The notes below the pieces were generated by a model. It did no database searches. It was not told where the DNA came from and worked only from the letters and a program-made list of their open reading frames with translations. From a virus (lineage: Duplodnaviria > Caudoviricetes): DNA of 64,000 nucleotides. Of the stretch, positions 2,651 to 61,884 are shown one piece after another; the stretch's first letter is position 1, and each line of letters opens with the position of its first letter. The position numbers and the translations under genes were made by a program. The stretch lies in the IMG/VR virus record IMGVR_UViG_3300009031_000221, positions 416,001-480,000 of that record; one strand, given 5' to 3'.

Positions 2651-2677
2651 TTCTACGCATTCTAGTAAGGAAGTAAG
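2651..2677 (-). promoter_or_regulatory. conserved promoter-like element
   Basis: CTTACTT-N12-GCGTAGAA. Confidence 0.75.
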
Positions 2678-2961
2678 CCTAGCTGACGGCATTTCACGAT
2701 TCGCAAGGCTTCCGTGAATTCTAGGGCAGCCCATGGGGCCTTATCCACTCGCACAAAGGCTTCTTCAAGAAGAGACTCGTAGGCATCGGGTTCTACCGTG
2801 CCATCCATCAGAATATCCGCGATCTCCGTCGCTTTCCGGCGAAGATGTTCTTCTACATGGATATGCCATTCTGCATGTACCTTTGCATACACGCCATTGG
2901 GGGAATCCTCCCCGCATATGTCACAGTGCAATGGATACGGAAATAATGTCATCTGTGTCAT
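2662..2961 (-). CDS. hypothetical protein
   Basis: Tiles with neighbours; 3' end overlaps the element at 2651. Confidence 0.6.
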   Translation of the reverse strand: MTQMTLFPYPLHCDICGEDSPNGVYAKVHAEWHIHVEEHLRRKATEIADILMDGTVEPDAYESLLEEAFVRVDKAPWAALEFTEALRIVKCRQLGLLPY

Positions 2962-2963
2962 GG

Positions 2964-3461
2964 CTATCCCTGAGTGCGAGGCTTCTTGGTCGGGTGCCCT
3001 TCACAGGCAACTGCTGGCGTAGGCATGGCGAAATGCACACGCTCCAATTCCCCCGTCTCCGGATTCATACCGTGCATGCGAACACTGGCGCCAAAGGGAT
3101 TGGAAAGTTCTACCAGGATCCCTTCCCCACCGTTCTTCTTCATGTGTGCATGTCCACAAGTGAAGTACGCCCTATTCGGACAGTCCCCGCACAACAGCAT
3201 GAATTGCCCAGGTTCGCCCATTCCCCATGGAACCTGCTGATAGCAGCGGGGATGATCGTCAATCTTCTTTTGGCAAGGCGAATCGTCATTGTCGCCACGG
3301 CAAACGATGAACACATTGCCGGGTTCCGGCTTGTCTTGTTCATCGCATTCCTGCCACATGCGGAAGGTGCAAATGTCATTCGAGGTATGCCCACACAACT
3401 GGCACTTATTCCAGGGATGCGGGGCATACTTGATTTCATCGGTCAGACGGGGGACTGCCAT
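2964..3461 (-). CDS. Cys-rich hypothetical protein
   Basis: Multiple CxxC motifs; tiles with neighbours. Confidence 0.65.
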   Translation of the reverse strand: MAVPRLTDEIKYAPHPWNKCQLCGHTSNDICTFRMWQECDEQDKPEPGNVFIVCRGDNDDSPCQKKIDDHPRCYQQVPWGMGEPGQFMLLCGDCPNRAYFTCGHAHMKKNGGEGILVELSNPFGASVRMHGMNPETGELERVHFAMPTPAVACEGHPTKKPRTQG

Positions 3462-3464
3462 TGG

Positions 3465-3824
3465 TTATTCCTTGCCCTTCTTGGGCTTCTTGGGCTTCTC
3501 GGTCGTGTACGTAACCGTGGTGATAGGGTACACCCGTTCACAAACCACTTCGTCACCCTTGGTGTACTCGAAGGGTTTGCAGTCTTCGCCGACCTGCGAC
3601 ATGTAGTAACTGTTCATCTTGTGAAAGATGGCTTGGTAGAAGTGGCCTTCGAATGCGATGTCCTGAAATACCGCCCGGTACTGATCGTGCAGTTCCGAAT
3701 CCGGCATGCCTCGGGCATATCCAAACTTCTCCGCAAACACGACGCAAGTGGTTTCTTCCCCGTCGAGGAAGTCCTTCAACTGCTCCGTGAGGAATTCCTT
3801 GTCAAATGCTTTGGTATCTGCCAT
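3465..3824 (-). CDS. hypothetical protein
   Basis: Downstream of motif at 3850; GGAGGA RBS. Confidence 0.7.
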   Translation of the reverse strand: MADTKAFDKEFLTEQLKDFLDGEETTCVVFAEKFGYARGMPDSELHDQYRAVFQDIAFEGHFYQAIFHKMNSYYMSQVGEDCKPFEYTKGDEVVCERVYPITTVTYTTEKPKKPKKGKE

Positions 3825-3849
3825 GTCCGTATCCTCCTGCTTGGGATGA

Positions 3850-3876
3850 GTCTACGCACTAGGGGACAGAAGTAAG
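3850..3876 (-). promoter_or_regulatory. conserved promoter-like element
   Basis: CTTACTT-N12-GCGTAGAC. Confidence 0.8.
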
Positions 3877-3886
3877 CCTAACAAGC

Positions 3887-4171
3887 CTAACGGGTCAACG
3901 CTTCGTAGAATCCCGGCAGATCTTCCTTCGGGGTCTCGAACTGCTTCAAGTGTTCCTTGACAGCATCCTCAATCTTGTCCTCTTGGAACCCATCAATGCA
4001 CCTATGGCCACATGACGTGCACTGGCGTACGTCTACCATCGCCGTCAGTATCGCATGACGCGGATGCCCATCAGGTGCATACTCAAACTTATGAGGCTGC
4101 GGCCCGTCCATCCAGGTCATGGATCCATCACAATCAGGGCACCGAAAATCTATTAGCATTTCTTCCTCCAA
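3887..4171 (-). CDS. YgiT/MqsA-type zinc-finger protein
   Basis: CPDC...VRQCTSCG spacing; no HTH. Confidence 0.45.
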   Translation of the reverse strand: MEEEMLIDFRCPDCDGSMTWMDGPQPHKFEYAPDGHPRHAILTAMVDVRQCTSCGHRCIDGFQEDKIEDAVKEHLKQFETPKEDLPGFYEALTR

Positions 4172-4491
4172 TTATCGTACATGACTTGTATTTCCCGTGC
4201 ATTGTCCAGATTCTGTGTCTCAGGATGCTCCCAGTCAATATCGATGGCATCGAACAGATTGAGCGCCTCTATCATATACTTCCGTTTGCCCTTGACCAGA
4301 AACTTCCCCGATACCACATGAACAACCTGCCATGTGTCCGGTTCCAATGGATCCTCTACAACCGCTAGCCATCCCTTCTGCTGTGCCTGCTTGACCGTCA
4401 TAGCAGGGCCGGGAATATTAAATGCATCCTCCGGGAATTGGTAGGTTTGATCATCTACCTCAAACCCTTCAAGAAAGTCTAGGAAGTCCAT
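4153..4491 (-). CDS. hypothetical protein
   Basis: Gene tiling. Confidence 0.65.
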   Translation of the reverse strand: MDFLDFLEGFEVDDQTYQFPEDAFNIPGPAMTVKQAQQKGWLAVVEDPLEPDTWQVVHVVSGKFLVKGKRKYMIEALNLFDAIDIDWEHPETQNLDNAREIQVMYDNWRKKC

Positions 4492-4498
4492 ATGCCCC

Positions 4499-4681
4499 CT
4501 AACCGTTCGTAAATGGAACCCCGAGGGCCTTCGACACTAGATACGCGAACCCGAAAAACAGTAGGGTGCCGATGCATGATGGAAGCAACACACATAATAG
4601 GAATAGCCCTATTTCGCCAATGGCATAGCATGTGGCACACAGGTACATCCATTGTGTGTGAATCTTGTTCCTAAGATTCAT
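4499..4681 (-). CDS. small membrane protein
   Basis: Hydrophobic stretch; tiling. Confidence 0.55.
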   Translation of the reverse strand: MNLRNKIHTQWMYLCATCYAIGEIGLFLLCVLLPSCIGTLLFFGFAYLVSKALGVPFTNG

Positions 4682-5654: not shown

Positions 5655-6458
5655 CTAATTCACCAGCGCCCAAGCGTCATCACGGTCGATGATCAGCGTG
5701 GTGCTGGACTTGTTGTCCCGAACCGCCTTGAGCTTGCCGGAGTTGGCCTTCTTGTCTTCCGCCACAAGGTAGGTCAGCGTCTTGCCCGCCGAATCCTTGA
5801 CCGTGCCGCCCTGCTTCTCAATGGCGTCCTTCAAGGAAGAGTCACGGAAACCCGTGAAACAGAAGGACATTCCCAGGAGTTTGCCGCTAGCCTGCTGGAT
5901 GGTGATGCCGGCTTCGCCAATCAGTTTGCCGATGAGCCCCGCCTTCTCCTGGAAGCCCATGACAAAGGCCTCCGCCGTCGTCTGGCTGAAGCCAGGGATT
6001 GCGGCGATTTCGGAGATACGGGCCTTCATCATCTTCGAGAGGGTGTTGAACCCGGCATCCGCAATCGACTGGGCCATCGAACGGCCAATCATCGGGATGC
6101 CAAGCGAACCCACGAAGGTGCTAAGGGAAAGGATTTTCTTTGCGTTCAGGTTGGTAACCGCCTTGTCACCGGAACCGCCAACGCGACGGCCACCGATTTC
6201 CAGGTCGGCAACCGCAACCGGGTCAAGCAGGTAGAGGTCAGCGATGTCCGTCACGAAACCCGCCTCAATGAGCGCCTCGATCAGGGTATCGCCAACGTGC
6301 AGGACGCCAATCTTCTTGACCCAGCGCTTGATGGAGCCGGAGGCCTGTGCCTCGCAGTCATCGTTGCGGCAAACCAAGTATTCGCCGTCCCGCGTCAAGT
6401 TGCCCTTGCAGGAGGGGCATTGCGTCGGAATCGTGAAGTATGCACGCGTGGTTGTCAT
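5655..6458 (-). CDS. ligA: NAD+-dependent DNA ligase, C-terminal part (Zn finger, HhH, BRCT)
   Basis: CPSC..C...C zinc finger, GSLGIPMIG HhH, LLGMSFCFTG BRCT; own promoter element and RBS. Confidence 0.92.
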   Translation of the reverse strand: MTTTRAYFTIPTQCPSCKGNLTRDGEYLVCRNDDCEAQASGSIKRWVKKIGVLHVGDTLIEALIEAGFVTDIADLYLLDPVAVADLEIGGRRVGGSGDKAVTNLNAKKILSLSTFVGSLGIPMIGRSMAQSIADAGFNTLSKMMKARISEIAAIPGFSQTTAEAFVMGFQEKAGLIGKLIGEAGITIQQASGKLLGMSFCFTGFRDSSLKDAIEKQGGTVKDSAGKTLTYLVAEDKKANSGKLKAVRDNKSSTTLIIDRDDAWALVN

Positions 6459-6498
6459 CGTATGAGTCCTTGAGGAGATCGTCTGTCCCCTGTGATGT

Positions 6499-6525
6499 AT
6501 CTACGCGGAACGGAGGAAAAGTAAG
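6499..6525 (-). promoter_or_regulatory. conserved promoter-like element (drives ligase C-half)
   Basis: CTTACTT-N12-GCGTAGAT; hairpin AGGGGA-CAGACGA-TCTCCT at 6473..6491. Confidence 0.85.
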
Positions 6526-8886: not shown

Positions 8887-10041
8887 TTAGATGTCATTCA
8901 CGATGCCTTCATCAACATTGGCTTCCAAGCGCGGAATAACGTCGTTCCTCTTGGAAACCAGGACGTTGCATCCTGGGAACAACTTGAGATGCTCGACTTG
9001 GCGAACTCCCGCAAGGCTAGCACGGGTAACCTTGGCCCCGCCAAGAATGACCTCATCAAAGATCGCAACGGGGGTGATTCGGCCCGAGTTGCCAACCTGC
9101 CATTGGATATCACGGATGATCGTCCGCTTTGCCTCGAAGGGAAACTTGTAGGCGATCGAACCCTTAGGGCGCCCGCCCAAATCTCCGTGGATTTCCCGGA
9201 TAACCGTATCGTCAATCTCGACAACGAGACCATCAATTTCGTATCCGATCGCCTTCCGCTTGCTCGCACAGTAGATCTGGTATTCCGCCTGAACTTCAGC
9301 CAAGGCTTTCCATACCGACCATTTCGGCGTTTGGAACCCCATGTCTTCCAATGCCAGGAGTTCCGTGGACTTCGATGCCATGGACACGCCTTGCGGCATC
9401 AGGTTGTAGCTCTTGAATGTCAAGTAGGAGCACTTGGCGAAATCGGTCTGCCGCATCAACGTGCCCGTGGCAGAGTTACGTGGGTTGGATTCACCCGGGA
9501 AATGCCGTGCAAAGTCCGTGTGCATGATGATGACTTCGCCCCGAACCCAAACATTGGCGGGAGTCGGATTGCCATCAGGCAGGAATGGGGGAAGCATCTT
9601 CACAACGCCCTGCATCAACATGGCATTGCGAGTAACTTCCTGGCCAATGGAACCATCGCCACGAGTCACTGCCTGAACCAGCACCCTATTGAGGTAATGC
9701 ATGCTCAAAGAGCAACCGTCAAGCTTGTCCATGACGATCAGGGATGATTGAGCGCTGCAACTCGTTACCCAGGCCTGCATGTCCTCGAAGAGCTGTGCCT
9801 TGTTCAGGGAACTCATCGGGATGGTGTGCTTGACCTTGGGCCAACCACCGGCAGTCGGACCTTGCGACACGGGAGCGCCGATGGTCTTCAGGAATGCGTG
9901 GTTAGGATCCAACTTGCGGAGGTCATCCTCAACAGAGTCGTAGACCGGATCGCTGACCAGAGGGGTTCCGGCGTAGTATGCCGCTTTCCACTTGGTCAGA
10001 TTGGCAACCATCTGATCGATTTGTGCTTGGTTCGCGTTCAC
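8887..10041 (-). CDS. ligA: NAD+-dependent DNA ligase, N-terminal part (Ia, adenylation, OB)
   Basis: YY..P.VSD..YD, PMSSL, KLDG, TRGDG, RGEV, NPRN, IDGLV, AYKFP, GRITPVA, NDVIP; ends with TAA after the OB fold. Confidence 0.93.
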   Translation of the reverse strand: MNANQAQIDQMVANLTKWKAAYYAGTPLVSDPVYDSVEDDLRKLDPNHAFLKTIGAPVSQGPTAGGWPKVKHTIPMSSLNKAQLFEDMQAWVTSCSAQSSLIVMDKLDGCSLSMHYLNRVLVQAVTRGDGSIGQEVTRNAMLMQGVVKMLPPFLPDGNPTPANVWVRGEVIIMHTDFARHFPGESNPRNSATGTLMRQTDFAKCSYLTFKSYNLMPQGVSMASKSTELLALEDMGFQTPKWSVWKALAEVQAEYQIYCASKRKAIGYEIDGLVVEIDDTVIREIHGDLGGRPKGSIAYKFPFEAKRTIIRDIQWQVGNSGRITPVAIFDEVILGGAKVTRASLAGVRQVEHLKLFPGCNVLVSKRNDVIPRLEANVDEGIVNDI

Positions 10042-10084
10042 TGGGGGCTCCCTCTATAGGACATCGTCTGTGCCCTTACGTACG

Positions 10085-10111
10085 ATCTACGCTAAAAGAG
10101 GCAGAAGTAAG
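10085..10111 (-). promoter_or_regulatory. conserved promoter-like element (drives ligase N-half)
   Basis: CTTACTT-N12-GCGTAGAT; hairpin GGGCA-CAGACGA-TGTCC at 10059..10075. Confidence 0.85.
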
Positions 10112-10118: not shown

Positions 10119-10328
10119 CTACCGTGGGAATTCTATCGAATCGGCACCATTATCACACCACTTCCGGCATGAAATATTTCTACGAGGATCCCCGTTTTCG
10201 CAACGCTTGGTGCATCGTTGAACACTGCTGGCTTGGTTGCCCAGGTATACGCCAACGGAAGCCCCCGCAATACAAATCAACACAAAAGCTACAATCAACC
10301 ATCCCTTTGCGGACATTCTATCCTCCAT
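10119..10328 (-). CDS. small membrane protein
   Basis: One TM segment plus Cys-rich tail. Confidence 0.55.
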   Translation of the reverse strand: MEDRMSAKGWLIVAFVLICIAGASVGVYLGNQASSVQRCTKRCENGDPRRNISCRKWCDNGADSIEFPR

Positions 10329-10377
10329 ACGAAGTTGCCTCTACATCACATCTACGATGTACCCTCGAATAGTAAGT

Positions 10378-11307: not shown

Positions 11308-11589
11308 CTAATTCACAGAGGGTTCGTAGGGTTCAATGACGCATTTCGCGGCCCAACCCTTGTCTTTGGCCTGGAGGAACCGTTGAGCAGCGGCTTCGGT
11401 CTTCCAATGCTGGGCTTGTGTCGGATTGGTCGTGTAGGGCTTACGGTTGGGTTGCCCCTTGGTCACGTATGCCGTGGTATTCCCGTCCCATTTCCAGTTG
11501 ATGACGTAAACCATTGGAGCCCCTACAGCTTGATGGATGGAAGATCCTCGATCCGATCTACCCATTTCCAAGCGTTGAGGGCGTTGCAC
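11308..11589 (-). CDS. hypothetical protein (start probably near 11511)
   Basis: Gene tiling. Confidence 0.55.
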   Translation of the reverse strand: MQRPQRLEMGRSDRGSSIHQAVGAPMVYVINWKWDGNTTAYVTKGQPNRKPYTTNPTQAQHWKTEAAAQRFLQAKDKGWAAKCVIEPYEPSVN

Positions 11590-11819
11590 ATCATCTGGGC
11601 CACGCTGCCCTTGGTGGGGTAATAGACACGAACTTCAGCCGTACCGTAGAAGGTGCGATCCCAGTCAGTGATGTCACCTTCATCCAGCATTCGGTCCAAT
11701 TCCGCAGAGCGTGTACGAGCCGCTTCTTTGACGCCCTTCTTGGTGGTTGCCCACACGGTGTCGATCTCGGTGTCCGACTCGCTGATTCGCTGCCACGTAA
11801 TCTGGTAAATCTTCGTCAT
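11523..11819 (-). CDS. hypothetical protein
   Basis: GGAACCTACGATG start context after element at 11859. Confidence 0.75.
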   Translation of the reverse strand: MTKIYQITWQRISESDTEIDTVWATTKKGVKEAARTRSAELDRMLDEGDITDWDRTFYGTAEVRVYYPTKGSVAQMMCNALNAWKWVDRIEDLPSIKL

Positions 11820-11858
11820 CGTAGGTTCCTAAGGGTATCGTCTGCGCCCCGGTAGTAC

Positions 11859-11885
11859 ATCTACGCTGGCACAAGGGAAAGTAAG
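11859..11885 (-). promoter_or_regulatory. conserved promoter-like element
   Basis: CTTACTT-N12-GCGTAGAT. Confidence 0.85.
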
Positions 11886-12182: not shown

Positions 12183-12557
12183 TTAGGACAGTTGCGTGCC
12201 GCAGGTGCAAGATGATTGGAAGTTGTGTTCGCCTCGGGCTTCCGGATGGCAGCACCAAAGGCAAAGCAGCACGCCCGTCTTCTTGGAATGCGGAAGCGGG
12301 TTCGGAGCGATCTCATGGTTGGCTTGCGCCCGCTGGGCCTGCCGGGCGTTCCACTGGGCAATGCCATAGTCTTCAACGCACTTCGCCAAGTCCGCATCCG
12401 CACAGTCATCCGAAACGGCACCCATCAACGTGTACGCCCCAGGGGCGTTCAAGTTTTCGCATGCCCCTACCCGCCAAAGCCCGCCGCCGTAGATGATGTA
12501 CAAGCATTCACCAATCTGCAATGCCTGGCCAAGGCGATTGATTTTCGAGTTCGTCAT
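12183..12557 (-). CDS. hypothetical protein
   Basis: Downstream of element at 12616; start trimmed to ATG 12557. Confidence 0.65.
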   Translation of the reverse strand: MTNSKINRLGQALQIGECLYIIYGGGLWRVGACENLNAPGAYTLMGAVSDDCADADLAKCVEDYGIAQWNARQAQRAQANHEIAPNPLPHSKKTGVLLCLWCCHPEARGEHNFQSSCTCGTQLS

Positions 12558-12615
12558 GGAGTACCCCTGAAACAGCAACGAGTTTCTTGAGGACATCGTC
12601 TGTGCCCTACACATC

Positions 12616-12642
12616 ATCTACGCTACAATCGGCGGAAGTAAG
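12616..12642 (-). promoter_or_regulatory. conserved promoter-like element
   Basis: CTTACTT-N12-GCGTAGAT; hairpin GGGCA-CAGACGA-TGTCC at 12591..12607. Confidence 0.85.
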
Positions 12643-13397: not shown

Positions 13398-13722
13398 CGA
13401 TCCATCCTCTGGCGAAGTAATTCGCCAAATCTATAGGGGTTGTCAAGGTAAACAGGGCTTTGGCATCGGGGTTCCAACCCTGATCAATGCTTCCCGTAAT
13501 GATCGTCTCGATATCCTTTGGCGTAATCGATGGTTGACGATAACGATCGTAGGCATCAAATTCCCAAGGTTCAGGTTCCGATAAATGTTCCTTGACGCCG
13601 ATGCCTACACGTAGCGTCCCCTGTGTAGTACGCTGAACGGGACGAACTTCGATACCCCTGAGGATGAAATGCCACCGGAAGGGGCGTCCGTTGACTACGA
13701 TATTTCGTCCGCCTTTCATCAT
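13387..13722 (-). CDS. hypothetical protein
   Basis: Gene tiling. Confidence 0.6.
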   Translation of the reverse strand: MMKGGRNIVVNGRPFRWHFILRGIEVRPVQRTTQGTLRVGIGVKEHLSEPEPWEFDAYDRYRQPSITPKDIETIITGSIDQGWNPDAKALFTLTTPIDLANYFARGWIDEC

Positions 13723-13725
13723 GGT

Positions 13726-14382
13726 CTAGACCTCATCGTAGCTAGATGCCTGTGCCCGGATGATCTCTTCCGCTTCCCGGCATTTGGCTCGAGCCGTGGC
13801 CTGATAGCGCTCCAGGTATTCGACCGCCTTTGCGGTTTCAGCGGGGTCGTTGTACTGCAGCAACATGACCGCATACTCCATGGCACCCAAGCAAGCGCAA
13901 GCGGCTTCCGAATACAGGACGATGGGCTTGACCCGTGGAGCGGGCTTAGGCTCCGTCTTGATGGGGTTGTCGATATGGAATGTCACGGCTTCGATGATGG
14001 TGTTCAGTTCTTCGCTGATGGTTTCTTGTTTCGCCTGACGGCGCTGTGCCAAGGGGATGAGGACTTCCGTCAATAGTCCCCCAAAGAGCACCCCGAGGAT
14101 GGTTCCAACGGTTACGCCAGTGGCGCATACCGTAAACAGGAATCCAAGGGATGCCCCTAGCCATGTACTGCCTATCCAAATTGCAATCTTCTGATAGGGA
14201 TAGTCCATGTTCTTACCCCACTCTGTCTTTGGATCTTTCAATCCATACAGGCCGATCAATATCCCCAAGACTAATCCGACACCAAGACCGACAACAGCCC
14301 CAAACGCATCCTTCGTAATAGAAACCCCGACCAGCATCCCTATCATCCCCATGGGAATGCTGATTGCCGCGAAGTAATTCAT
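13726..14382 (-). CDS. multi-pass membrane protein
   Basis: About four Gly-rich TM segments. Confidence 0.65.
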   Translation of the reverse strand: MNYFAAISIPMGMIGMLVGVSITKDAFGAVVGLGVGLVLGILIGLYGLKDPKTEWGKNMDYPYQKIAIWIGSTWLGASLGFLFTVCATGVTVGTILGVLFGGLLTEVLIPLAQRRQAKQETISEELNTIIEAVTFHIDNPIKTEPKPAPRVKPIVLYSEAACACLGAMEYAVMLLQYNDPAETAKAVEYLERYQATARAKCREAEEIIRAQASSYDEV

Positions 14383-14386
14383 GTTT

Positions 14387-14971
14387 CTACCCCACTCCGT
14401 TCAGGACGCGATCCACGCCAAAGCGCAGCTTGATCCAGGATTCCAATCGTTCGTAGGGCATATCATCGGCCCGCCAGTAGAACTTGTGCAAGCACTGACC
14501 GCATCCCGTTCCCATGACGTAGAATCCGATGTGCTTGGTGTATTTGGGGTTCCCACATTCGGTTTTCTCTCCCACGTCCCTCCCGTTGTAGTCAATGCAC
14601 ATGTTCCAACGGTTCGGGTCGAATTCCCCACGGATGTAATCATCTACCAGGTTTTGCAGCGTGTAGGGCTGGGCGGCAACCGGAACCTGCGGCACCATGT
14701 CCGCCGGCTCTTCGGGAAAAGAGGGTCGGGCGTTTGGCAGTTCGATGGCCTGCATGAATTCGTGCATGACGTTGTAGGGAACATTGAATCCCCCCGTCCC
14801 GTCATCGCATTGGAATACAATTCCTTGACCCCGCCATTCCATGCATCCTTCATTGTTGGACAAGCAAGAAGCCGTCACAACGTCCGGGGCATTCGCGAAC
14901 TTGGTGATGGTGATACGCCACCCTTCCAGTTCGCAGTGCTCATGCCCGTACTTGTCCGTCGTCCAGCCCAT
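14387..14971 (-). CDS. hypothetical protein
   Basis: Gene tiling. Confidence 0.65.
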   Translation of the reverse strand: MGWTTDKYGHEHCELEGWRITITKFANAPDVVTASCLSNNEGCMEWRGQGIVFQCDDGTGGFNVPYNVMHEFMQAIELPNARPSFPEEPADMVPQVPVAAQPYTLQNLVDDYIRGEFDPNRWNMCIDYNGRDVGEKTECGNPKYTKHIGFYVMGTGCGQCLHKFYWRADDMPYERLESWIKLRFGVDRVLNGVG

Positions 14972-15435
14972 TACATCCCCCGTGACATGGTGGGGTCAAC
15001 CACCTCATCATCGTCAACCATTTCCACGGTGATTTCCTTGATGTAGACCGTCAAGTCCTGCTCCATGCGGATGTCCGCCAGGATGGGAGCGTTGCCCATT
15101 TCCGTGACGCGGGCCGACTTGCTGAAGAACACTTCCTGACCCAGCCAGTGGCCTTCCAGGACAACGGTGAAGATCAGGTTGCCGTTCTCAGTCTCGGTTT
15201 CCCGAACCAATTCAACCAAGTGCGTCGTGTGCTTCCGGGCACCCTCGGGGCAAACCGCGTGGAAGTCCGCGATGCGGGCTTGGCAAGGCACCTCATCCGC
15301 AACCGCTTTCTGCATGAACAAACGAGCCGCCGCCTTCGCACCCTTGCGGCTTGCGAACTTCTCGTTCTCGCCAACCTTGATCGGCGTGTTCAAGCCACTG
15401 GAGTACGTTGCGGTGAAGTAGGTAAACTTGGTCAT
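14971..15435 (-). CDS. hypothetical protein
   Basis: GGAACCTACGATG start context. Confidence 0.75.
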   Translation of the reverse strand: MTKFTYFTATYSSGLNTPIKVGENEKFASRKGAKAAARLFMQKAVADEVPCQARIADFHAVCPEGARKHTTHLVELVRETETENGNLIFTVVLEGHWLGQEVFFSKSARVTEMGNAPILADIRMEQDLTVYIKEITVEMVDDDEVVDPTMSRGM

Positions 15436-15483
15436 CGTAGGTTCCTCAGGGCTAGTCGTGCCGTAGCAGCCGCCCTATGTATG

Positions 15484-15510
15484 ATCTACGCCAGAGTTTG
15501 AGAAAGTAAG
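15484..15510 (-). promoter_or_regulatory. conserved promoter-like element
   Basis: CTTACTT-N12-GCGTAGAT. Confidence 0.85.
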
Positions 15511-15513
15511 TCC

Positions 15514-15855
15514 TCAGTCCTTCTTCGCCTTCCAGTTCTCCTCAAGCCACACGATGCCGATTTCCCCGCCCCATTCTCGGGGTTTACGCCAAATGTTCTC
15601 GGGCGTAACGCGGATCTGGGCGCACAATTCATCCAAGCTTTTGTGCGCTTCTTCCAAGTTGATGAAGCCCCCCGTGTGGTGCATCTTGGACTTCAAGCGG
15701 ACGATCTTGACATCTTGGACATCCGCGACCGACCCCGGCATCGGGGCTTCCTCGAAGAAGGCCGGATGGTACTTGCCCGTCGTCACGTCATGCAATACGC
15801 AAAGCACGTCCAAAGGGCCCCCGGTAAAGGTTCCATCACCGTTCTGAATCATCAT
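15514..15855 (-). CDS. hypothetical protein
   Basis: GGAGGA RBS; stop abuts element. Confidence 0.7.
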   Translation of the reverse strand: MMIQNGDGTFTGGPLDVLCVLHDVTTGKYHPAFFEEAPMPGSVADVQDVKIVRLKSKMHHTGGFINLEEAHKSLDELCAQIRVTPENIWRKPREWGGEIGIVWLEENWKAKKD

Positions 15856-15864
15856 GGCGTCCTC

Positions 15865-16353: not shown

Positions 16354-16388
16354 CGTAGATTCCTGATGCGGGCATCCGTGCCCTGCTA

Positions 16389-16652
16389 TCAATCTACGCT
16401 GCCGCGACGAAAAGTAAGTCCATCATTCGATGCCCTGCATCCGTCCGATAGTACTTCGCTAGGTTGCGAGCTAGCTATACAGGCTCCCGTCAACATCCGA
16501 CCCTTTGCCTTACGGCAAGCCTTCAAGTGATCACGATACTCGGATTGCATTCCCGCATCATCCGTTTCCTGAATCACAGAAACCCAGACGTACGCCGCAA
16601 GTGACCAACGCTTGTTCTTCTCCGCATCCAATGCTTCTTCAAGTAGCGTCAT
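16389..16652 (-). CDS. hypothetical protein
   Basis: ATGA coupling to MBL stop; reads through the element at 16392. Confidence 0.45.
   Translation of the reverse strand: MTLLEEALDAEKNKRWSLAAYVWVSVIQETDDAGMQSEYRDHLKACRKAKGRMLTGACIASSQPSEVLSDGCRASNDGLTFRRGSVD
16392..16418 (-). promoter_or_regulatory. conserved promoter-like element
   Basis: CTTACTT-N12-GCGTAGAT; hairpin GGGCA-CGGA-TGCCC at 16370..16383. Confidence 0.85.
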
Positions 16653-19734: not shown

Positions 19735-19771
19735 AAGGGTGCCTATCACCCATCGTCTGTGGGCGTGACCT

Positions 19772-19798
19772 ATCTACGCTCCTAATGGCGAAAGTAAG
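19772..19798 (-). promoter_or_regulatory. conserved promoter-like element
   Basis: CTTACTT-N12-GCGTAGAT; inverted-stem hairpin CCCA-CAGACGA-TGGG at 19749..19763. Confidence 0.85.
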
Positions 19799-21624: not shown

Positions 21625-21651
21625 ATCTACGCTGCTTGTTTGGGAAGTAAG
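21625..21651 (-). promoter_or_regulatory. conserved promoter-like element
   Basis: CTTACTT-N12-GCGTAGAT; hairpin GGGAA-CGGA-TTCCC at 21604..21617. Confidence 0.85.
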
Positions 21652-22938: not shown

Positions 22939-22996
22939 TATGAACTCCGCACATACCTTTATTAGGTTGTCCGCTAATGGACGTGCGATAACTCCA

Positions 22997-23348: not shown

Positions 23349-23567
23349 TCACAAATCAAGGGTGCAGAACTCCACCTGAACCTTGGAATCATCCTCGGCA
23401 AAGGTGTAGGCGTTCTTACCGGGCAAGTAGGGATGCGGGACGATGCCCGTCACGGTGCCGACCTGGAGGTTGGACTTGAAGGGCTTGCCGGAGATCTTGC
23501 GAACCCGCTGTCCAACCTCAACCAAATTCTTTTCACGTCTCGGCATGGTTTCCATCTCCCTGTTCAA
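23349..23567 (-). CDS. hypothetical protein (SH3-like)
   Basis: Downstream of element at 23567. Confidence 0.6.
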   Translation of the reverse strand: MNREMETMPRREKNLVEVGQRVRKISGKPFKSNLQVGTVTGIVPHPYLPGKNAYTFAEDDSKVQVEFCTLDL

Positions 23568-23593
23568 TCTACGCGGGTTGCGTACGAAGTAAG
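23567..23593 (-). promoter_or_regulatory. conserved promoter-like element
   Basis: CTTACTT-N12-GCGTAGAT. Confidence 0.85.
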
Positions 23594-24656: not shown

Positions 24657-24683
24657 ATCTACGCTGATGGAGGCGAAAGTAAG
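24657..24683 (-). promoter_or_regulatory. conserved promoter-like element
   Basis: CTTACTT-N12-GCGTAGAT. Confidence 0.85.
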
Positions 24684-25467: not shown

Positions 25468-25494
25468 ATCTACGCTGTTCCCACAAGAAGTAAG
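25468..25494 (-). promoter_or_regulatory. conserved promoter-like element (divergent pair, left)
   Basis: CTTACTT-N12-GCGTAGAT. Confidence 0.85.
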
Positions 25495-25508: not shown

Positions 25509-25535
25509 CTTACTTTCCTACCCATCAGCGTAGAT
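25509..25535 (+). promoter_or_regulatory. conserved promoter-like element (divergent pair, right)
   Basis: CTTACTT-N12-GCGTAGAT; hairpin GGGCG-ATGA-CGCCC at 25543..25556. Confidence 0.85.
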
Positions 25536-25940: not shown

Positions 25941-25967
25941 CTTACTTTTCCCATCGACAGCGTAGAT
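25941..25967 (+). promoter_or_regulatory. conserved promoter-like element
   Basis: CTTACTT-N12-GCGTAGAT, identical to the copy at 28325. Confidence 0.85.
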
Positions 25968-26588: not shown

Positions 26589-26615
26589 CTTACTTTCCCT
26601 TCTAGCAGCGTAGAT
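26589..26615 (+). promoter_or_regulatory. conserved promoter-like element
   Basis: CTTACTT-N12-GCGTAGAT. Confidence 0.85.
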
Positions 26616-28324: not shown

Positions 28325-28351
28325 CTTACTTTTCCCATCGACAGCGTAGAT
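28325..28351 (+). promoter_or_regulatory. conserved promoter-like element
   Basis: CTTACTT-N12-GCGTAGAT; hairpin GGGCA-CGGACGA-TGCCC at 28359..28375. Confidence 0.85.
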
Positions 28352-29241: not shown

Positions 29242-29268
29242 CTTACTTTCGCCCCTAGCAGCGTAGAT
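29242..29268 (+). promoter_or_regulatory. conserved promoter-like element
   Basis: CTTACTT-N12-GCGTAGAT; hairpin GGGCA-CGGATGA-TGCCC at 29276..29292. Confidence 0.85.
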
Positions 29269-29942: not shown

Positions 29943-29969
29943 CTTACTTTCGGCTCTATCAGCGTAGAT
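29943..29969 (+). promoter_or_regulatory. conserved promoter-like element
   Basis: CTTACTT-N12-GCGTAGAT. Confidence 0.85.
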
Positions 29970-30227: not shown

Positions 30228-30254
30228 CTTACTTTTCGTTCTAGCCGCGTAGAT
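30228..30254 (+). promoter_or_regulatory. conserved promoter-like element (drives WGR-PARP)
   Basis: CTTACTT-N12-GCGTAGAT; hairpin AGGGCA-ACG-TGCCCT at 30262..30276. Confidence 0.85.
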
Positions 30255-33405: not shown

Positions 33406-33432
33406 CTTACTTTCCTCTTCCTCGGCGTAGAT
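33406..33432 (+). promoter_or_regulatory. conserved promoter-like element
   Basis: CTTACTT-N12-GCGTAGAT; hairpin GGGCGA-CGGATGA-TCGCTT at 33440..33458. Confidence 0.85.
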
Positions 33433-36296: not shown

Positions 36297-36323
36297 CTTA
36301 CTTTCATGCTGAGATGCGTAGAA
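36297..36323 (+). promoter_or_regulatory. conserved promoter-like element
   Basis: CTTACTT-N12-GCGTAGAA. Confidence 0.8.
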
Positions 36324-37861: not shown

Positions 37862-37888
37862 CTTACTTCTTGACCTAGCAGCGTAGAT
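37862..37888 (+). promoter_or_regulatory. conserved promoter-like element (drives second ART)
   Basis: CTTACTT-N12-GCGTAGAT. Confidence 0.85.
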
Positions 37889-38832: not shown

Positions 38833-38859
38833 CTTACTATGTGTTGAGAATGCGTAGAT
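38833..38859 (+). promoter_or_regulatory. conserved promoter-like element
   Basis: CTTACTA-N12-GCGTAGAT. Confidence 0.8.
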
Positions 38860-40340: not shown

Positions 40341-40367
40341 CTTACTTTCGGATAGTTCAGCGTAGAT
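40341..40367 (+). promoter_or_regulatory. conserved promoter-like element
   Basis: CTTACTT-N12-GCGTAGAT. Confidence 0.85.
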
Positions 40368-41865: not shown

Positions 41866-41892
41866 ATCTACGCATACCAGTAGGAAAGTAAG
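41866..41892 (-). promoter_or_regulatory. conserved promoter-like element
   Basis: CTTACTT-N12-GCGTAGAT; a weaker GGTACTT-N12-GTGTATAG lies at about 41822..41848. Confidence 0.75.
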
Positions 41893-41953
41893 TCCCCCAA
41901 GGAAATCTTATCCACAGGGGGCTCAATAGCGACTCCTTTGGGTATTACTCTAT

Positions 41954-42785: not shown

Positions 42786-42812
42786 CTTACTTTCGGGCAG
42801 AAGTGCGTAGAT
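42786..42812 (+). promoter_or_regulatory. conserved promoter-like element
   Basis: CTTACTT-N12-GCGTAGAT. Confidence 0.85.
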
Positions 42813-42892
42813 AGGGTGTGGGGTCGGCGAATGATTGACCCCAGTCCCTAGATGCTAGACACGAGGCAGATGACCTCGTACAGGAGTCCTCC

Positions 42893-48870: not shown

Positions 48871-49110
48871 TTACAATTTGTTGTAGACTTCAACGGCCTT
48901 GTTGGCATCCACTCGCAGGCAGCGGACGTTATCGCGGGTCAACCCGGATCCGCAAGGGTACCGGTAGACGACCGTATACACGCCGGCACGGGGGTAGAAG
49001 TACATCCGCCTGGGGAAACGGACATTCACACCGGGACCTTCCGCCACGATGACTGCCGTATCCGATCGCGACCGAACCGACTTCGCAAGTACTTCGTTGA
49101 TATTCAGCAT
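48871..49110 (-). CDS. hypothetical protein
   Basis: AAGGAA RBS after element at 49149. Confidence 0.65.
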   Translation of the reverse strand: MLNINEVLAKSVRSRSDTAVIVAEGPGVNVRFPRRMYFYPRAGVYTVVYRYPCGSGLTRDNVRCLRVDANKAVEVYNKL

Positions 49111-49148
49111 TGACGTTCCTTTGCCTCGCATTATGCGGGCTACGTATC

Positions 49149-49175
49149 ATCTACGCTGGACTCTCAGGAAGTAAG
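49149..49175 (-). promoter_or_regulatory. conserved promoter-like element
   Basis: CTTACTT-N12-GCGTAGAT. Confidence 0.85.
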
Positions 49176-49478
49176 CTACGGCTCGAGCGTGTCCCTCTTG
49201 AATAGTTTGCTGAGCCTTGCTTCGACCTTCTCACGCGCCTTTGGAAGTGCCTTGATGGTACGAAGCATTTCACGATGCGAAATGACCTTATCCGCAGCCA
49301 GGATCTTGACCTTGTTCTCCGCCTCATCTCGATAGGCGAAAACAAATACCTCTGCTCTGGCACGGGCGCTAATATGCAGCAACGCCCACACAAGATCAAG
49401 GGTCGCACCAAGTAGAACGATGACCGCCATAACGATCATCACACCCTTGTAGTCCACATGCGCTAGAATCCAACCCAT
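49176..49478 (-). CDS. membrane protein
   Basis: TM segment; TAG stop abuts element. Confidence 0.6.
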   Translation of the reverse strand: MGWILAHVDYKGVMIVMAVIVLLGATLDLVWALLHISARARAEVFVFAYRDEAENKVKILAADKVISHREMLRTIKALPKAREKVEARLSKLFKRDTLEP

Positions 49479-49516
49479 CGTAGAGACCTCATAGCCCAAC
49501 GCACGGGCTATGGGTC

Positions 49517-49543
49517 ATCTACGCTGGATTTTTTGGAAGTAAG
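49517..49543 (-). promoter_or_regulatory. conserved promoter-like element
   Basis: CTTACTT-N12-GCGTAGAT; hairpin CATAGCCC-N7-GGGCTATG follows. Confidence 0.85.
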
Positions 49544-50922: not shown

Positions 50923-50949
50923 CTTACTTTACCGATCCACAGCGTAGAT
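50923..50949 (+). promoter_or_regulatory. conserved promoter-like element
   Basis: CTTACTT-N12-GCGTAGAT. Confidence 0.85.
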
Positions 50950-50988: not shown

Positions 50989-51450
50989 ATGATCAAGCTT
51001 ACCGCCAAGAAGTATCGCCACTTCAACATCGGCCATGAGGGCGGGGCCATGTCCTGCGAACTCTACGTTGATGGCGTTCTGGCGGCACACGTTGAGAACG
51101 ACGGCACCGGTAGCTCGAACAAGTACACCTGGGTCGGCCCCTATGAGAAGTGCCACTCCATCAACGTCCCCGCGGACATCGCGGCACACGTCGAAGCGCA
51201 GCCCGAAGTCGATTACCACGGCTACAAGATGAAGCCCAACTTGGACATGCTGGTTGATGATGCCTGCTACGACTTCCAGATGAACCGCAAATTGACCATT
51301 CGCTGCAAGAAGGTGACGGTGTTCCGCTTCCCGACTGACCCGAAGGATCACTATCGCGAGTACGCCAAGCCCTTCACGCCCGCCATTGCGGCGGCGATTC
51401 GTGCCAAGCACCCGAATGTCATCATCATCAACGAGACCCTGGGGGCGTAG
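50989..51450 (+). CDS. conserved phage hypothetical protein
   Basis: GGAACCGACGATG start context. Confidence 0.75.
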   Translation: MIKLTAKKYRHFNIGHEGGAMSCELYVDGVLAAHVENDGTGSSNKYTWVGPYEKCHSINVPADIAAHVEAQPEVDYHGYKMKPNLDMLVDDACYDFQMNRKLTIRCKKVTVFRFPTDPKDHYREYAKPFTPAIAAAIRAKHPNVIIINETLGA

Positions 51451-51452: not shown

Positions 51453-51479
51453 CTTACTTCTAGCCCAATCCGCGTAGAT
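51453..51479 (+). promoter_or_regulatory. conserved promoter-like element
   Basis: CTTACTT-N12-GCGTAGAT. Confidence 0.85.
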
Positions 51480-51585
51480 AGAGTGTGGTGATAGTTTAGT
51501 TGTGAAAACAGCAGGACAACCCAAGCGGCAAACCTGTCATTCGCGGAATCGAAGCCCGCTCACCACCCCAAACGAGGTCTATCCA

Positions 51586-52035
51586 ATGAAGTTGAAAACT
51601 TTCCACCGCTACTCCGGGAGTATTACAGTCGCGGAAGTGCCCTGGTACACGTGGCTTTGGGCTCAGTTGTTCCGCCCATTAGGTTTCACCCTTTTCATCG
51701 TCGCATGTGGCTTCGGGATCGCCCAGATCCCGAAGCCCGATTACAGCTATCATCACCACTACGACGGCGTCGAATCCGTGCTGCTCCAAACGCAGCGTTC
51801 GGCTTCATTCATCGTTGTGATGCCCGATGGCACGCGGAAAGTGCAAGGCAATGAGTTCGGCGCCATCACCCTGATCTACGATGTGCCGGAAGGAAAACTT
51901 GGATGGGCGGACGCTACGCGGGATCGCGATTCGAATAATGAACAGGTCGTCATCCACACGCACGCAAAAGATCTGCAAGGCGGGGGCTGGGATCACGGAA
52001 AAGGGGGTAAAGGAACCACGGTACTGATTCCATGA
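51586..52035 (+). CDS. membrane-anchored protein
   Basis: TM segment; GAGG RBS. Confidence 0.65.
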   Translation: MKLKTFHRYSGSITVAEVPWYTWLWAQLFRPLGFTLFIVACGFGIAQIPKPDYSYHHHYDGVESVLLQTQRSASFIVVMPDGTRKVQGNEFGAITLIYDVPEGKLGWADATRDRDSNNEQVVIHTHAKDLQGGGWDHGKGGKGTTVLIP

Positions 52036-59891: not shown

Positions 59892-60221
59892 TTACACCTC
59901 TTCCAAATCCTTGTAGAACTTTGCCAGTTTGTCGGCCTCGAATCCCAAGCTCAGGTAGATGTCCCGTTCCATTCGCCGCACGTTGCGGTTCTCCTCCTCC
60001 GTTTCACTATAACCCCCGCGACGAAAGATGTCGAGGAGGGCGGAGTAGAACTCGAGTTCCAGGTCGGACTCGGGCTTGAACCCCTCCAGGGCACCCTTCA
60101 AGCAACGCATCATCAGGTAGCTCATGTGCGGAGTCGGGTTGAGCACAACTCCATCCAGGGATGGGGGAGCCAAAAAACACGAAGCGTTCAACAGAGATTC
60201 CAAGTCCTTGCGGATATCCAT
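59892..60221 (-). CDS. hypothetical protein
   Basis: TAATG-type coupling; start trimmed. Confidence 0.6.
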   Translation of the reverse strand: MDIRKDLESLLNASCFLAPPSLDGVVLNPTPHMSYLMMRCLKGALEGFKPESDLELEFYSALLDIFRRGGYSETEEENRNVRRMERDIYLSLGFEADKLAKFYKDLEEV

Positions 60222-60628
60222 TAGCCAGCCCTCCCCGCGATGCCCGTGATCTGATCGCCGCCACCGCCACCATGGGTCGGGCTGCTTCCTGGGCCATACC
60301 AACGATCATGGGGATTGCTGCTGAACGTGCGGACATCGCGCTGTGGCGTGACACCCTTCAGGTTCAACCCGTAGCCTTCCAGCATGATGCGAAGGGTCGT
60401 GTTGTAGATGCCCGTGTACAGGTGCAACTTGACCAGTTCCGAGGTCGTGAACGTGTCCCGGTCGCTATCCATCATGAACTGGACGAAGTCTTCCACGGAT
60501 GCGAATTCCGGTTCCTCCTCCAGTTCCGGGGGAAGCTCCGGGTTCTCCATGTGGCGGAAGTCCGCATCACCCTTGCCGAAGCGGGGTTCGGGCTTCTCTT
60601 TCTCAGGGACGTAGGAAGTGCGTGCCAT
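60221..60628 (-). CDS. conserved phage hypothetical protein
   Basis: AAGGAACC RBS after element at 60667. Confidence 0.75.
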   Translation of the reverse strand: MARTSYVPEKEKPEPRFGKGDADFRHMENPELPPELEEEPEFASVEDFVQFMMDSDRDTFTTSELVKLHLYTGIYNTTLRIMLEGYGLNLKGVTPQRDVRTFSSNPHDRWYGPGSSPTHGGGGGDQITGIAGRAG

Positions 60629-60666
60629 GTTCGGTTCCTTCAGGCGTCGTTCGCGCCCTATGTAGG

Positions 60667-60693
60667 ATCTACGCTGGCAGGAGCGAAAGTAAG
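60667..60693 (-). promoter_or_regulatory. conserved promoter-like element
   Basis: CTTACTT-N12-GCGTAGAT; hairpin GGGCG-CGAACGA-CGCCT at 60642..60658. Confidence 0.85.
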
Positions 60694-60694
60694 C

Positions 60695-60895
60695 CTAAAG
60701 CATGCCCATCATTATCAACGTGCCCCCGAAACATCCGGCGCTGCCGACCAACAGGATGGCTTTGTAGAACCACGGGACACCTGACCAATTGTCCCCATCA
60801 TTGACGCTGATGACGTAGAGAAGGGTTCCCGCGGATGGCAGTCCGAAGACAAGGATAAGCATAAGTCCTTGGATGATGTTCGTAGGGATGTTCAT
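60695..60895 (-). CDS. small membrane protein
   Basis: Two TM segments; stop abuts element. Confidence 0.6.
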   Translation of the reverse strand: MNIPTNIIQGLMLILVFGLPSAGTLLYVISVNDGDNWSGVPWFYKAILLVGSAGCFGGTLIMMGML

Positions 60896-61344
60896 GCCTT
60901 GTCACCTTGGGCATCCCACCCATAATTGTCCTGCTTCTTCGCAGCCTTGCGGGACAATTCCTGGGGCAGGGGCTTGGTGCAAACGAACTGCAACACCGGC
61001 CAATGGTTGAGTTCCTCGAACACCGTCCAACCCTGCTCCTCGGCGAAGATCTTGGCAACACGTGTTGCCTCCGCACCGAAGTAGGCATACGAATGGGATC
61101 CGAAGCCTTGCAGTGGCAGGGTCATGTTGTAGGCGTCTTCCACTGCCTGGTAATCGACGGTGACCACGAAGGTGTAATCGTAGGTATTTTCCTGAACCTT
61201 GAGCTTGCCGCCCCTGACCGTCATTTCCATGGGACGGCTACTGTAGCCACAGGTGCTACTGCCATGGATGGTGATGGGGTACGTCTTTTCAGCAATGGTG
61301 CCGTTGGCCTGTTCAATGCCGTTACGATACATTCCGAGGTTCAT
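60892..61344 (-). CDS. hypothetical protein
   Basis: GGAG RBS; start trimmed. Confidence 0.65.
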   Translation of the reverse strand: MNLGMYRNGIEQANGTIAEKTYPITIHGSSTCGYSSRPMEMTVRGGKLKVQENTYDYTFVVTVDYQAVEDAYNMTLPLQGFGSHSYAYFGAEATRVAKIFAEEQGWTVFEELNHWPVLQFVCTKPLPQELSRKAAKKQDNYGWDAQGDKA

Positions 61345-61367
61345 TGTGCATTCTCCAAGTTCAGATG

Positions 61368-61775
61368 TTAGGGTTCCCAACCCTCGAGGGTGCAACCGCC
61401 ATCCATCGGGTTCGATTCCGGGTTGATGACCCGATCCCCGACGATGAAACGGCCGCGGGAAATCGGCTCCGCATCCAAGATGGTCGTGCGGTACTTGCCG
61501 TTCTTGGCGTACTGCGAAGACAAACGCTTGTTCGCATGGAACTCACGCTCCGCACCGTAGGCCAAATCAAGCGTCGAGTACGGGCCAACGATGTGGTTCT
61601 CGTCCTGGCAACACGTGCATCCCGTACGGCATTCCACGAAGAAGAGTTCCTGCGTGACAGGCGCCTCTTCATATTCTCGCCCAGTGCAGGGCGGGGCATC
61701 GTCAGTAGTCCCGCCTGCCATGTCCGTACAATAGCCACAACGAGTGCAAGTTCCAAATGTCCAATCGTGCTGCAT
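61368..61775 (-). CDS. hypothetical protein
   Basis: ACGATG start after element at 61816. Confidence 0.7.
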   Translation of the reverse strand: MQHDWTFGTCTRCGYCTDMAGGTTDDAPPCTGREYEEAPVTQELFFVECRTGCTCCQDENHIVGPYSTLDLAYGAEREFHANKRLSSQYAKNGKYRTTILDAEPISRGRFIVGDRVINPESNPMDGGCTLEGWEP

Positions 61776-61815
61776 CGTTCGTTCGTTCCTTGAAGGACTT
61801 CATGCCCTACCATCT

Positions 61816-61842
61816 ATCTACGCTACTAGAAGGGAAAGTAAG
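61816..61842 (-). promoter_or_regulatory. conserved promoter-like element (divergent pair, left)
   Basis: CTTACTT-N12-GCGTAGAT. Confidence 0.85.
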
Positions 61843-61857
61843 TCATGACCCGTTGGA

Positions 61858-61884
61858 CTTACTTTCTTGGGGAGGAGCGTAGAC
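61858..61884 (+). promoter_or_regulatory. conserved promoter-like element (divergent pair, right)
   Basis: CTTACTT-N12-GCGTAGAC; hairpin GGGCG-TCAA-TGCCC follows. Confidence 0.85.

Follow-up and report, generated by a model that had tools for sequence, protein, structure and literature searches.

Genome, window and motif

The window analysed here is a stretch of 64,000 nt, bases 416,001-480,000 of a virus record of 536,053 bp that comes from groundwater metagenomes (IMG/VR record IMGVR_UViG_3300009031_000221, Caudoviricetes), with 52% G+C. The genome encodes 68 tRNA genes and one tmRNA. Genes of the window that belong to recognisable families have accessory and repair functions, including two PARP-like proteins, an NAD-dependent ligase, RtcB, an RNA ligase, PhoH, a radical SAM enzyme, an AAA ATPase and a metallo-beta-lactamase-fold protein. 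Ahead of many genes in the window lies a short repeated motif, CTTACTT-N12-GCGTAGAT, whose 27 nt are treated here as the core of a promoter, class 1. Open reading frames (ORFs) were predicted with a self-trained caller, by which 18.5% of the genome is non-coding. Positions are those of the window unless they are given as genome positions.

The window contains 29 exact copies of the motif, 33 with at most one mismatch and 35 with at most two (Table 1), where shuffled sequences lead to an expectation of 0.00-0.05. A scan of the whole genome (536 kb), as proposed in an earlier note on this DNA, revealed 94 exact copies, 122 with at most one mismatch and 128 with at most two. The spacer is 12 nt in all 128 copies, and other spacers within 8-17 nt give 0-2 matches. 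The two halves of the motif are also the most abundant 9-mers of the genome. The earlier note had counted 34 copies by hand with the same fixed spacer, which is close to the scan, and the outermost window copies, at 2651 and 61884, are the exact limits of the range that it gave. The identities that it had pointed out were found as well: the copies at 25941 and 28325 have the same 27-nt core plus flanking bases, and a 21-nt string is common to the copies at 25509, 28325 and 29943.

The extended consensus reads rGrCTTACTTyy-N8-c(a/t)GCGTAGATr-nnn-YR-n-rGGG. The gene before the motif often ends directly against it, and some of the upstream rGr bases belong to the stop codon (TAG or TGA) of that gene. 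No match was obtained when 20 kb of the window were compared with GenBank phages by megablast, and a search for the exact motif across IMG/VR gave only 34 single matches, which is the level of chance.

Position, orientation and conservation of the motif

Of the 128 copies, 112 are located in non-coding sequence, far above the non-coding background of the genome, and 118 run in the direction of the gene or tRNA that follows; among the others, several probably reflect ORF calls on the wrong strand. All 35 window copies have an ORF downstream. Start codons most often follow GCGTAGAT at 33-44 nt, and the stretch between is taken up by a hairpin and a Shine-Dalgarno sequence, AGGA(AC), which leaves no room for a separate promoter. 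Copies also precede tRNA genes and clusters, for example at genome positions 207,987(+), 224,670(-), 234,741(-) and 256,938(-), and the motif therefore acts on transcription and not on translation. Where the coding strand switches, copies stand back to back, as at 25,468(-)/25,509(+) and 61,816(-)/61,858(+).

A relative with the same motif is represented by contigs L081-L084 and L093 of one metagenome, plus L083. At orthologous sites in this relative (67-78% nucleotide identity) all 15 of the 15 core bases are kept and the 12-nt spacer has fully diverged, a pattern that reads as a clean phylogenetic footprint. The -10 box is followed by a conserved pyrimidine-purine (Y-R) step and then by a G-rich stretch. 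Sigma70-like sites between 22 and 42 kb of the window are at or below chance when compared with shuffles.

The motif is not distributed evenly. It is absent from 0-20, 40-100, 140-160 and 180-200 kb of the genome, regions that hold the DNA polymerase, helicases and very large, mostly unannotated genes; a baseplate-like match suggests that the latter are virion genes. Since the motif is absent from these replication and large-gene regions, the class would serve the non-structural genes and the tRNAs.

Taken together, position, co-orientation and the orthologous footprint strongly support the reading of the motif as a promoter, which the earlier note had proposed, and the motif behaves as a promoter of a type other than sigma70. 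The intergenic placement and the orientation into the next gene described in that note were borne out by the counts above; its form of the ribosome site, GGAA(C)nnACGATG, fits the commonest variant only, the site being mostly AGGA(AC).

The element would then be the main promoter class of the phage, with about 128 copies driving non-structural and accessory genes and tRNA clusters. Its two predicted parts, rGrCTTACTT as the -35 box and GCGTAGAT as the -10 box, are separated by 12 nt; the element can be written alternatively as TTAC-N15-CGTA, which is the layout of promoters read by extracytoplasmic function (ECF) sigma factors. The predicted transcription start is the conserved pyrimidine-purine step that lies 5-6 nt beyond GCGTAGAT.

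Once class 1 had been masked, only tRNA features came out of a de novo search for dyads. Sites of the form cGGTAG-N3-yCCyTATAc precede genes of the structural and replication regions (genome 107,524; 115,343; 122,692; 133,116; 143,918; 508,358; 511,890; 529,347; all outside the window). By their extended similarity they may form a second promoter class; the count of the pattern itself is not above chance.

Hairpin downstream of the promoter

A hairpin stem begins 4-11 nt after the motif in 82 of the 128 copies, compared with 39 (maximum 49) in shuffled sequences and 45 (maximum 60) at random genomic positions, and in 58 copies it begins 6-8 nt after GCGTAGAT. With the transcription start placed at the Y-R step, the hairpin would begin at about +2 and thus form a stem-loop at the 5' terminus. 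A 5-bp stem closed by the 7-nt loop CRRAYGA recurs in about 30 copies, roughly a quarter of them all. Twenty-three of the CRRAYGA copies, chosen by loop and position only, were aligned. In this alignment 89% of the cells pair, against 68% in shuffles (none of 500 reached this value) and 35-59% in slid-register controls, and all five base pairs are compensatory, with changes on both sides. One window copy has the stem swapped to CCCA/TGGG and the loop unchanged (Table 1).

Forty-three CRRAYGA hairpins were found genome-wide, 22 of them directly behind a class-1 core, while permuted-loop controls gave 10-29. The excess is linked to the promoters, because the count exceeds the controls only through the copies behind them. 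The same type of loop (CAAAUGA, CGGAUGA) follows the GGATCATC-type promoters of related phages, so that the loop is older than the switch of the -35 box described below.

Rfam search of the window gave no match at the gathering threshold. No U-tract follows the cassette hairpin, no terminator-like site coincides with it, and the number of terminator-like sites is below that in shuffles. A boxB-like (GNRA-type) hairpin as in lambda and P22 was dropped as a candidate, since A occurs as often as G at the third position of the loop, and so was a K-turn or box C/D motif, the 7-nt loop being too short for a K-loop.

The order of promoter, stem-loop and ribosome site given in the earlier note is thus real, with a hairpin at a fixed offset and a covarying stem. 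Its statement that a hairpin usually follows holds as an enrichment and not as a universal rule. In about 60% of the copies the RNA would fold almost immediately into a GC-rich 5'-terminal hairpin, which is then followed by AGGA(AC) and the start codon, some 35-44 nt from the -10 box. Protection of the predicted mRNA 5' end is the probable function of the hairpin, and the conserved loop may be a binding site for a phage protein with an effect on the regulon as a whole. By analogy with known leaders, protection of the 5' end with a possible protein-binding loop is the best reading of the hairpin.

Candidate phage sigma factor

Pfam searches of the genome for multisubunit RNA polymerase genes (Rpb2_6, Rpb1_2) detected none; a Pfam search for a T7-type RNA polymerase was uninformative, as its control was silent everywhere. 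The best sigma candidate is a 308-aa protein encoded at genome 305,990-306,916 on the minus strand, outside the window. It carries sequence signatures of sigma regions 2 and 4, with weak sigma matches in Pfam and PHROG. A profile of nine of its homologues matches the sigma-H structure 3mzy over both domains (E = 0.003). In the AlphaFold model (mean predicted local distance difference test, pLDDT, 66) all of the 50 best PDB matches are sigma factors, with the ECF sigmas SigH of M. tuberculosis and sigmaE of E. coli at the top; the open complex of phiEco32 gp36 (9m7y) is also among the structural matches. The protein possesses a conserved N-terminal extension of about 130 aa, and no anti-sigma partner was identified.

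Upstream of this gene, by about 150 nt, lies a hybrid element, TTGACTTACTT-N12-TACTACTT (genome ~307,070-307,100; L010 ~2225-2255, minus strand), in which a class-1 -35 box overlaps a TTGACT sigma70-like hexamer and the -10 box is different. It may be the route by which the sigma is itself first expressed.

It is most likely a phage-encoded ECF-type sigma that directs the RNA polymerase core of the host to the motif. This reader is probable on the present comparisons, and it agrees with the phage-encoded or alternative sigma suggested in the earlier note; the sigma gene, the variation of its region 4 among relatives (below) and the lack of host copies of the motif point to it. The name 'early' used in that note is questionable: a class that has to wait for the synthesis of a phage sigma would be delayed-early or middle and not immediate-early.

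Switched -35 boxes in related phages

Related huge phages show the same layout and density of promoters, with lineage-specific -35 boxes and a shared (C/A)GTA(G/A) -10 core. The -35 boxes named among them are GGATCATC, GGGCTCAA, GGTAAC, GGGGTTCC and TGCCCGTT. The promoters read GGATCATC-N13/14-GAGTAG in L078-L080, L103 and L112, GGGCTCAA-N15-sCGTAGT in the 517-kb groundwater phage L113, GGTAAC-N16-rAGTAG in L097/L099 (402 kb), GGGGTTCC-N15/16-CGTAwAG in L104 and TGCCCGTTAAAA-N14-CCGTAAG in L100. Unguided top-dyad motif discovery near the sigma homologues was swamped by tandem repeats, which was solved by anchoring on the -10 core. At the corresponding site, orthologues of the PARP-like gene at 30299-31855 in relatives have GGGATCAT...GAGTAG as their promoter.

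When the sigma homologues are aligned, region 2 proves nearly invariant (identical columns around SSFGHYVHMV), and the helix-turn-helix of region 4 is different in every lineage. No sigma homologue was matched in the GGATCAT-type relatives L078-L080, whose records are only 6-24% complete. The relatives look like a natural series of orthogonal sigma/promoter pairs.

Weighing of the promoter model and its alternatives

We consider it likely that the phage has a main promoter class of its own, read by a phage ECF-type sigma and provided with a 5' hairpin. Within this model we infer the transcription start, the identity of the reading sigma, the timing and the function of the hairpin. Several observations weigh against it. 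Promoter function does not require the hairpin, since about 40% of the copies lack a clear one. The evidence for the sigma is modest (E ~3e-3, mean pLDDT 66), and its pairing with the promoter is correlative, over five lineages. At least three other sigma-like genes are present in the genome, at 194,060-195,196, 365,569-366,348 and 161,786-162,391 (the last with region 4 only), and because of them the assignment is not unique; the first of these matches no Pfam family at E up to 0.1 and has a sigma70-like TTGACT-N16-TAAAGT upstream. As to the promoter itself, the -35 box is without the AAC typical of ECF promoters and has TTAC instead, and its core stands 15 nt from that of the -10 box, 1 nt below the usual ECF distance of 16-17, although the CGTA core is present. 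The host may be absent from the genome collection scanned, and no RNA run with the sequence of the window was found.

A site for some other phage DNA-binding protein (repressor, activator, nucleoid or packaging factor), or the end of a small mobile element, is very improbable as the nature of the motif. Strict repeats of about 27 nt are typical of operator and recombinase sites as well, and some copies are identical, yet the two boxes form an asymmetric motif whose spacer bases are unconstrained, the copies are not flanked by terminal repeats or target duplications, and neither the strong co-orientation with genes and tRNAs, nor the fixed 33-44 nt filled by hairpin and Shine-Dalgarno, nor the divergent pairs at strand switches fit such a site. 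Unlikely too, though less so, is that an alternative (ECF-type) sigma of the host rather than a phage protein reads the motif. The ECF-like layout with its CGTA -10 box would suit it, hosts of huge groundwater phages are poorly sampled, and the sigma-like genes of the phage could serve other promoter classes. However, among 185,579 prokaryotic species representatives none has more than one copy of the motif. Single matches in Campylobacterota (Sulfurimonas and others of low G+C) were rejected as promoters, being coincidences in coding sequence: of the four genome matches three lie in one conserved gene and the fourth in another, and among the contigs L119, L120, L122 and L086 share one coding sequence and L117 and L095 the other. 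Moreover, closely related phages keep the layout with different -35 boxes, and the phage sigma varies exactly in the helix that reads the -35 box. The switching, the region-4 variation and the lack of host copies favour a phage-encoded reader over a host one, as a correlation and not as proof.

The earlier note had further suggested that the element is an analogue of the promoter-early-stem-loop (PeSL) cassettes of T4-type phages, a recombination substrate that may shuffle accessory genes. Homologous exchange between copies would then excise, insert and shuffle the small genes between them. Such a role in addition to that of promoter has some features in its favour and is on balance improbable. 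Accessory regions are dense in promoters, with almost one per gene; relatives share scattered genes and not local order, as around the PARP-like and radical SAM genes of the window, where the genes are shared and their order differs; insertions specific to this genome bring their own promoters (genome 230,658, 232,145, 241,706 and 243,960); and spacers are shared by non-orthologous copies, which points to copying or conversion of cores within the genome. The indel comparison did not agree with it. In collinear alignments of the genome at 205-248 kb, a tRNA-rich region outside the window, with the same-motif relative (~70% identity; one relative only), 14 indels of at least 300 bp were found, and only 2 of their 28 breakpoints are at most 60 nt away from a core, compared with 16% of the gene boundaries there. 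The breakpoint enrichment at the element looked for in relatives is thus not seen. In none of the 14 are two flanking copies in one genome matched by a single copy in the other. The identity between copies ends at 27-38 nt and never continues into the flanks, where PeSLs have ~100 bp (PMC2839356), and the stem-loop is not a terminator. The recombination role is therefore not supported. Genes that have their own promoters thus do move as units, but no observation links this exchange to the sequence of the promoter.

Thirty non-orthologous pairs of spacers have at least 10 of 12 positions identical, against 2.2 expected from column shuffles, and an identical 27-nt core is found in five genome copies (38,075, 441,941, 444,325, 492,457 and 494,668); orthologous copies in the relative have unrelated spacers. 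Either copying or conversion of cores within the genome or selection on some spacers would account for this identity. Four groundwater DNA runs were also compared with positions 22,001-42,000 of the window through Logan contigs. No usable structural variants were detected in this part, the reported joints being cross-mapping of other copies. The contigs of the four runs all break at the identical copies, at 25,945-25,969 and 28,323-28,358, and the 36-nt repeat forms a unitig of about twice the depth. These breaks were rejected as variants and correspond to an assembly artefact of the repeat.

A wider reading joins these observations, and we offer it tentatively, as possible rather than expected. 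The CRRAYGA hairpin would be an RNA operator for one phage protein acting on more than 100 transcripts, through stability, translation or antitermination; promoter cores would be copied between loci, new genes would be wired in by promoter capture, and the sigma and the -35 box would repeatedly have switched specificity across this clade of huge phages, with a natural set of orthogonal pairs as the outcome.

Copies in the window and neighbouring features

Table 1. Class-1 promoter cores in the window, with the leader and gene that follow each copy
Core	Position	Strand	Downstream features
1 mismatch (GCGTAGAA)	2651..2677	-	ATG 34 nt downstream at 2616, ORF 2077-2616
1 mismatch (GCGTAGAC)	3850..3876	-	ATG at 3824, ORF 3465-3824
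exact	6499..6525	-	CAGACGA-loop hairpin 6473-6491; ATG at 6458, ORF 5655-6458
exact	10085..10111	-	CAGACGA-loop hairpin 10058-10076; start 10041 of NAD-dependent DNA ligase gene 8887-10041
2 mismatches	10350..10376	-	ATG at 10328, ORF 10119-10328
exact	11859..11885	-	CAGACGA-loop hairpin 11832-11850; ATG at 11819, ORF 11523-11819
exact	12616..12642	-	CAGACGA-loop hairpin 12590-12608; frame of ORF 12183-12617, true start uncertain
exact	15484..15510	-	long hairpin in leader; ATG at 15435, ORF 14971-15435
exact	16392..16418	-	CGGA-loop hairpin; ATG at 16353 in ORF 15865-16392
exact	19772..19798	-	hairpin 19747-19765, swapped stem CCCA/TGGG, CAGACGA loop; ATG at 19734
exact	21625..21651	-	CGGA-loop hairpin; ATG at 21591
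exact	23567..23593	-	short leader without hairpin; ATGs 11 and 20 nt downstream, ORF 23349-23567
exact	24657..24683	-	CAAACGA-loop hairpin 24628-24646; ATG at 24612, ORF 24205-24612
exact, left half of divergent pair	25468..25494	-	ORF 25217-25453; 14 nt from core 25509
exact, right half of divergent pair	25509..25535	+	ATG at 25573, ORF 25573-25920
exact, one of five genome copies with the same 27-nt core	25941..25967	+	ATG at 26017
exact	26589..26615	+	ATG at 26654, ORF 26654-27061, then radical SAM gene 27054-28076
exact, same as 25941	28325..28351	+	CGGACGA-loop hairpin 28358-28376; ATG at 28389
exact	29242..29268	+	CGGATGA-loop hairpin 29275-29293; ATG at 29307, ORF 29307-29537
exact	29943..29969	+	ATG at 30003, ORF 30003-30221
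exact	30228..30254	+	ATG at 30299 of PARP-like gene 30299-31855
exact	33406..33432	+	CGGATGA-loop hairpin 33440-33458; ORF 33471-34250
1 mismatch	36297..36323	+	ATG at 36358 of AAA ATPase gene 36358-37491
exact	37862..37888	+	ATG at 37926 of second PARP-like gene 37926-38831
1 mismatch (CTTACTA)	38833..38859	+	ATG at 38894, ORF 38894-39274
exact	40341..40367	+	CGAATGA-loop hairpin 40373-40391; AGGAA, then ATG at 40403 in ORF 40370-40753
exact, target unclear	41866..41892	-	next ORF 41569-41766, ~100 nt downstream
exact	42786..42812	+	80-nt leader with two CRRAYGA-loop hairpins (42822-42840, ~42860-42885); ATG at 42893, ORF 42893-43714
exact	49149..49175	-	ATG at 49110 in ORF 48871-49131
exact	49517..49543	-	strong 9-bp hairpin; ATG at 49478 in ORF 49176-49499
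exact	50923..50949	+	CATACGA-loop hairpin; ATG at 50989, ORF 50989-51450
exact	51453..51479	+	ORF 51502-52035, start uncertain; spacer same as genome copy 338580
exact	60667..60693	-	CGAACGA-loop hairpin 60641-60659; ATG at 60628, ORF 60221-60628
exact, left half of second divergent pair	61816..61842	-	ATG at 61775, ORF 61368-61775
1 mismatch, right half of second divergent pair	61858..61884	+	ATG at 61923, ORF 61923-62360

Some class-1 promoters elsewhere in the genome are not followed by a called gene. The one at 109,317(-) has no ORF downstream (genome 109,134-109,343; L083 261-603); the region transcribed from it has ~78% identity in a relative from another metagenome, which fits a non-coding RNA. 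Downstream of those at 241,706, 242,486 and 250,981, no ORF was called over 1-2.6 kb (239,870-242,353; 249,957-251,000), stretches that probably hold RNA genes or very small genes. ARAGORN predicted a 90-nt tRNA with anticodon UUA at genome 483,473-483,562 (-), 3.5 kb past the end of the window, a potential ochre (TAA) suppressor. In the related phage L113, Cas5d and Cas7 genes are located near the radical SAM homologue (13,707-16,840).

Significance

The motif provides a transcription map for about 128 units of an uncultured 536-kb phage, including its 68 tRNAs, and can be used to fix gene starts and to find small RNAs. If the model holds, a single strict promoter, read by an ECF-type sigma of the phage itself, is enough for a huge phage to express most of its non-structural programme, and the series of sigma factors and -35 boxes in the relatives would be of interest to synthetic biology as orthogonal pairs. 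The covarying 5' hairpin is a candidate regulon-wide RNA element without an Rfam family. Regulons of phage sigma factors are of a known kind, and the attached RNA element is an interesting addition to them. What was most exciting in the first reading of this DNA falls away with the negative result on shuffling; the identical cores remain as a hint of promoter copying.

Comparison with known systems

PeSLs consist of a terminator stem-loop, then an AT-rich stretch and then a sigma70 early promoter, with ~100 bp conserved (PMC2839356, PMC4122927); they also delimit the indels that distinguish close relatives, and they give rise to mini-circles (PMC2839356, PMC4122927). Similar to PeSLs, the element described here is a short regulatory cassette between small, poorly conserved genes in plastic regions, and each cassette is closed by a Shine-Dalgarno sequence with the start codon of the gene that follows. 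However, its promoter is ECF-like, with a consensus unrelated to TTGACA/TATAAT, and its stem-loop lies after the promoter, inside the transcript and without a U-tract, whereas the PeSL terminator is upstream of the promoter. Only 27-38 nt are shared among its copies, the flanks are unrelated, and breakpoints are not enriched at the element.

Phage sigma factors with their own promoter class include gp28 and gp33/34 of SPO1 and gp55 of T4. The likeness to these systems is that a sigma-family protein, here a predicted one, redirects the host core RNA polymerase to a phage consensus found genome-wide. In coliphage phiEco32, gp36 serves middle/late promoters, with the consensus AATGTA at -11.5 (PMC12276001). 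The present class differs from such systems in its strict -35 and -10 boxes with an invariant spacer, in about 128 copies in 536 kb, and would serve non-structural genes and tRNAs instead of late genes. It also has a conserved 5' hairpin attached, and the relatives have swapped the -35 box.

The promoters of ECF sigma factors have an AAC-type -35 box, a CGT-type -10 box and rigid spacing, as in TGAAAC-N16-CGTA of B. subtilis SigW and GGAACTT-N16-TCTGA of E. coli sigmaE. The class-1 promoter is likewise bipartite and rigidly spaced with a CGT(A) -10 core, and the candidate sigma contains, of the sigma domains, only 2 and 4. The differences are the CTTACTT -35 box (TTAC, not AAC), the 15 nt between the core triplets against 16-17 nt, and the N-terminal extension of ~130 aa in the sigma. 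The motif is in this respect a variant of the canonical ECF consensus.

Stabilising stem-loops at the 5' terminus are known from the ompA leader of E. coli, the gene 10 leader of T7 and ermC/aprE of B. subtilis. Similar to these, the hairpin described here is stable, lies a few nucleotides from the predicted 5' end and precedes the ribosome binding site. In contrast to them it is attached to a whole promoter regulon, and a subset of its copies carries the conserved 7-nt CRRAYGA loop. As this loop is kept across phage lineages, a sequence-specific recognition is suggested, beyond protection of the end.

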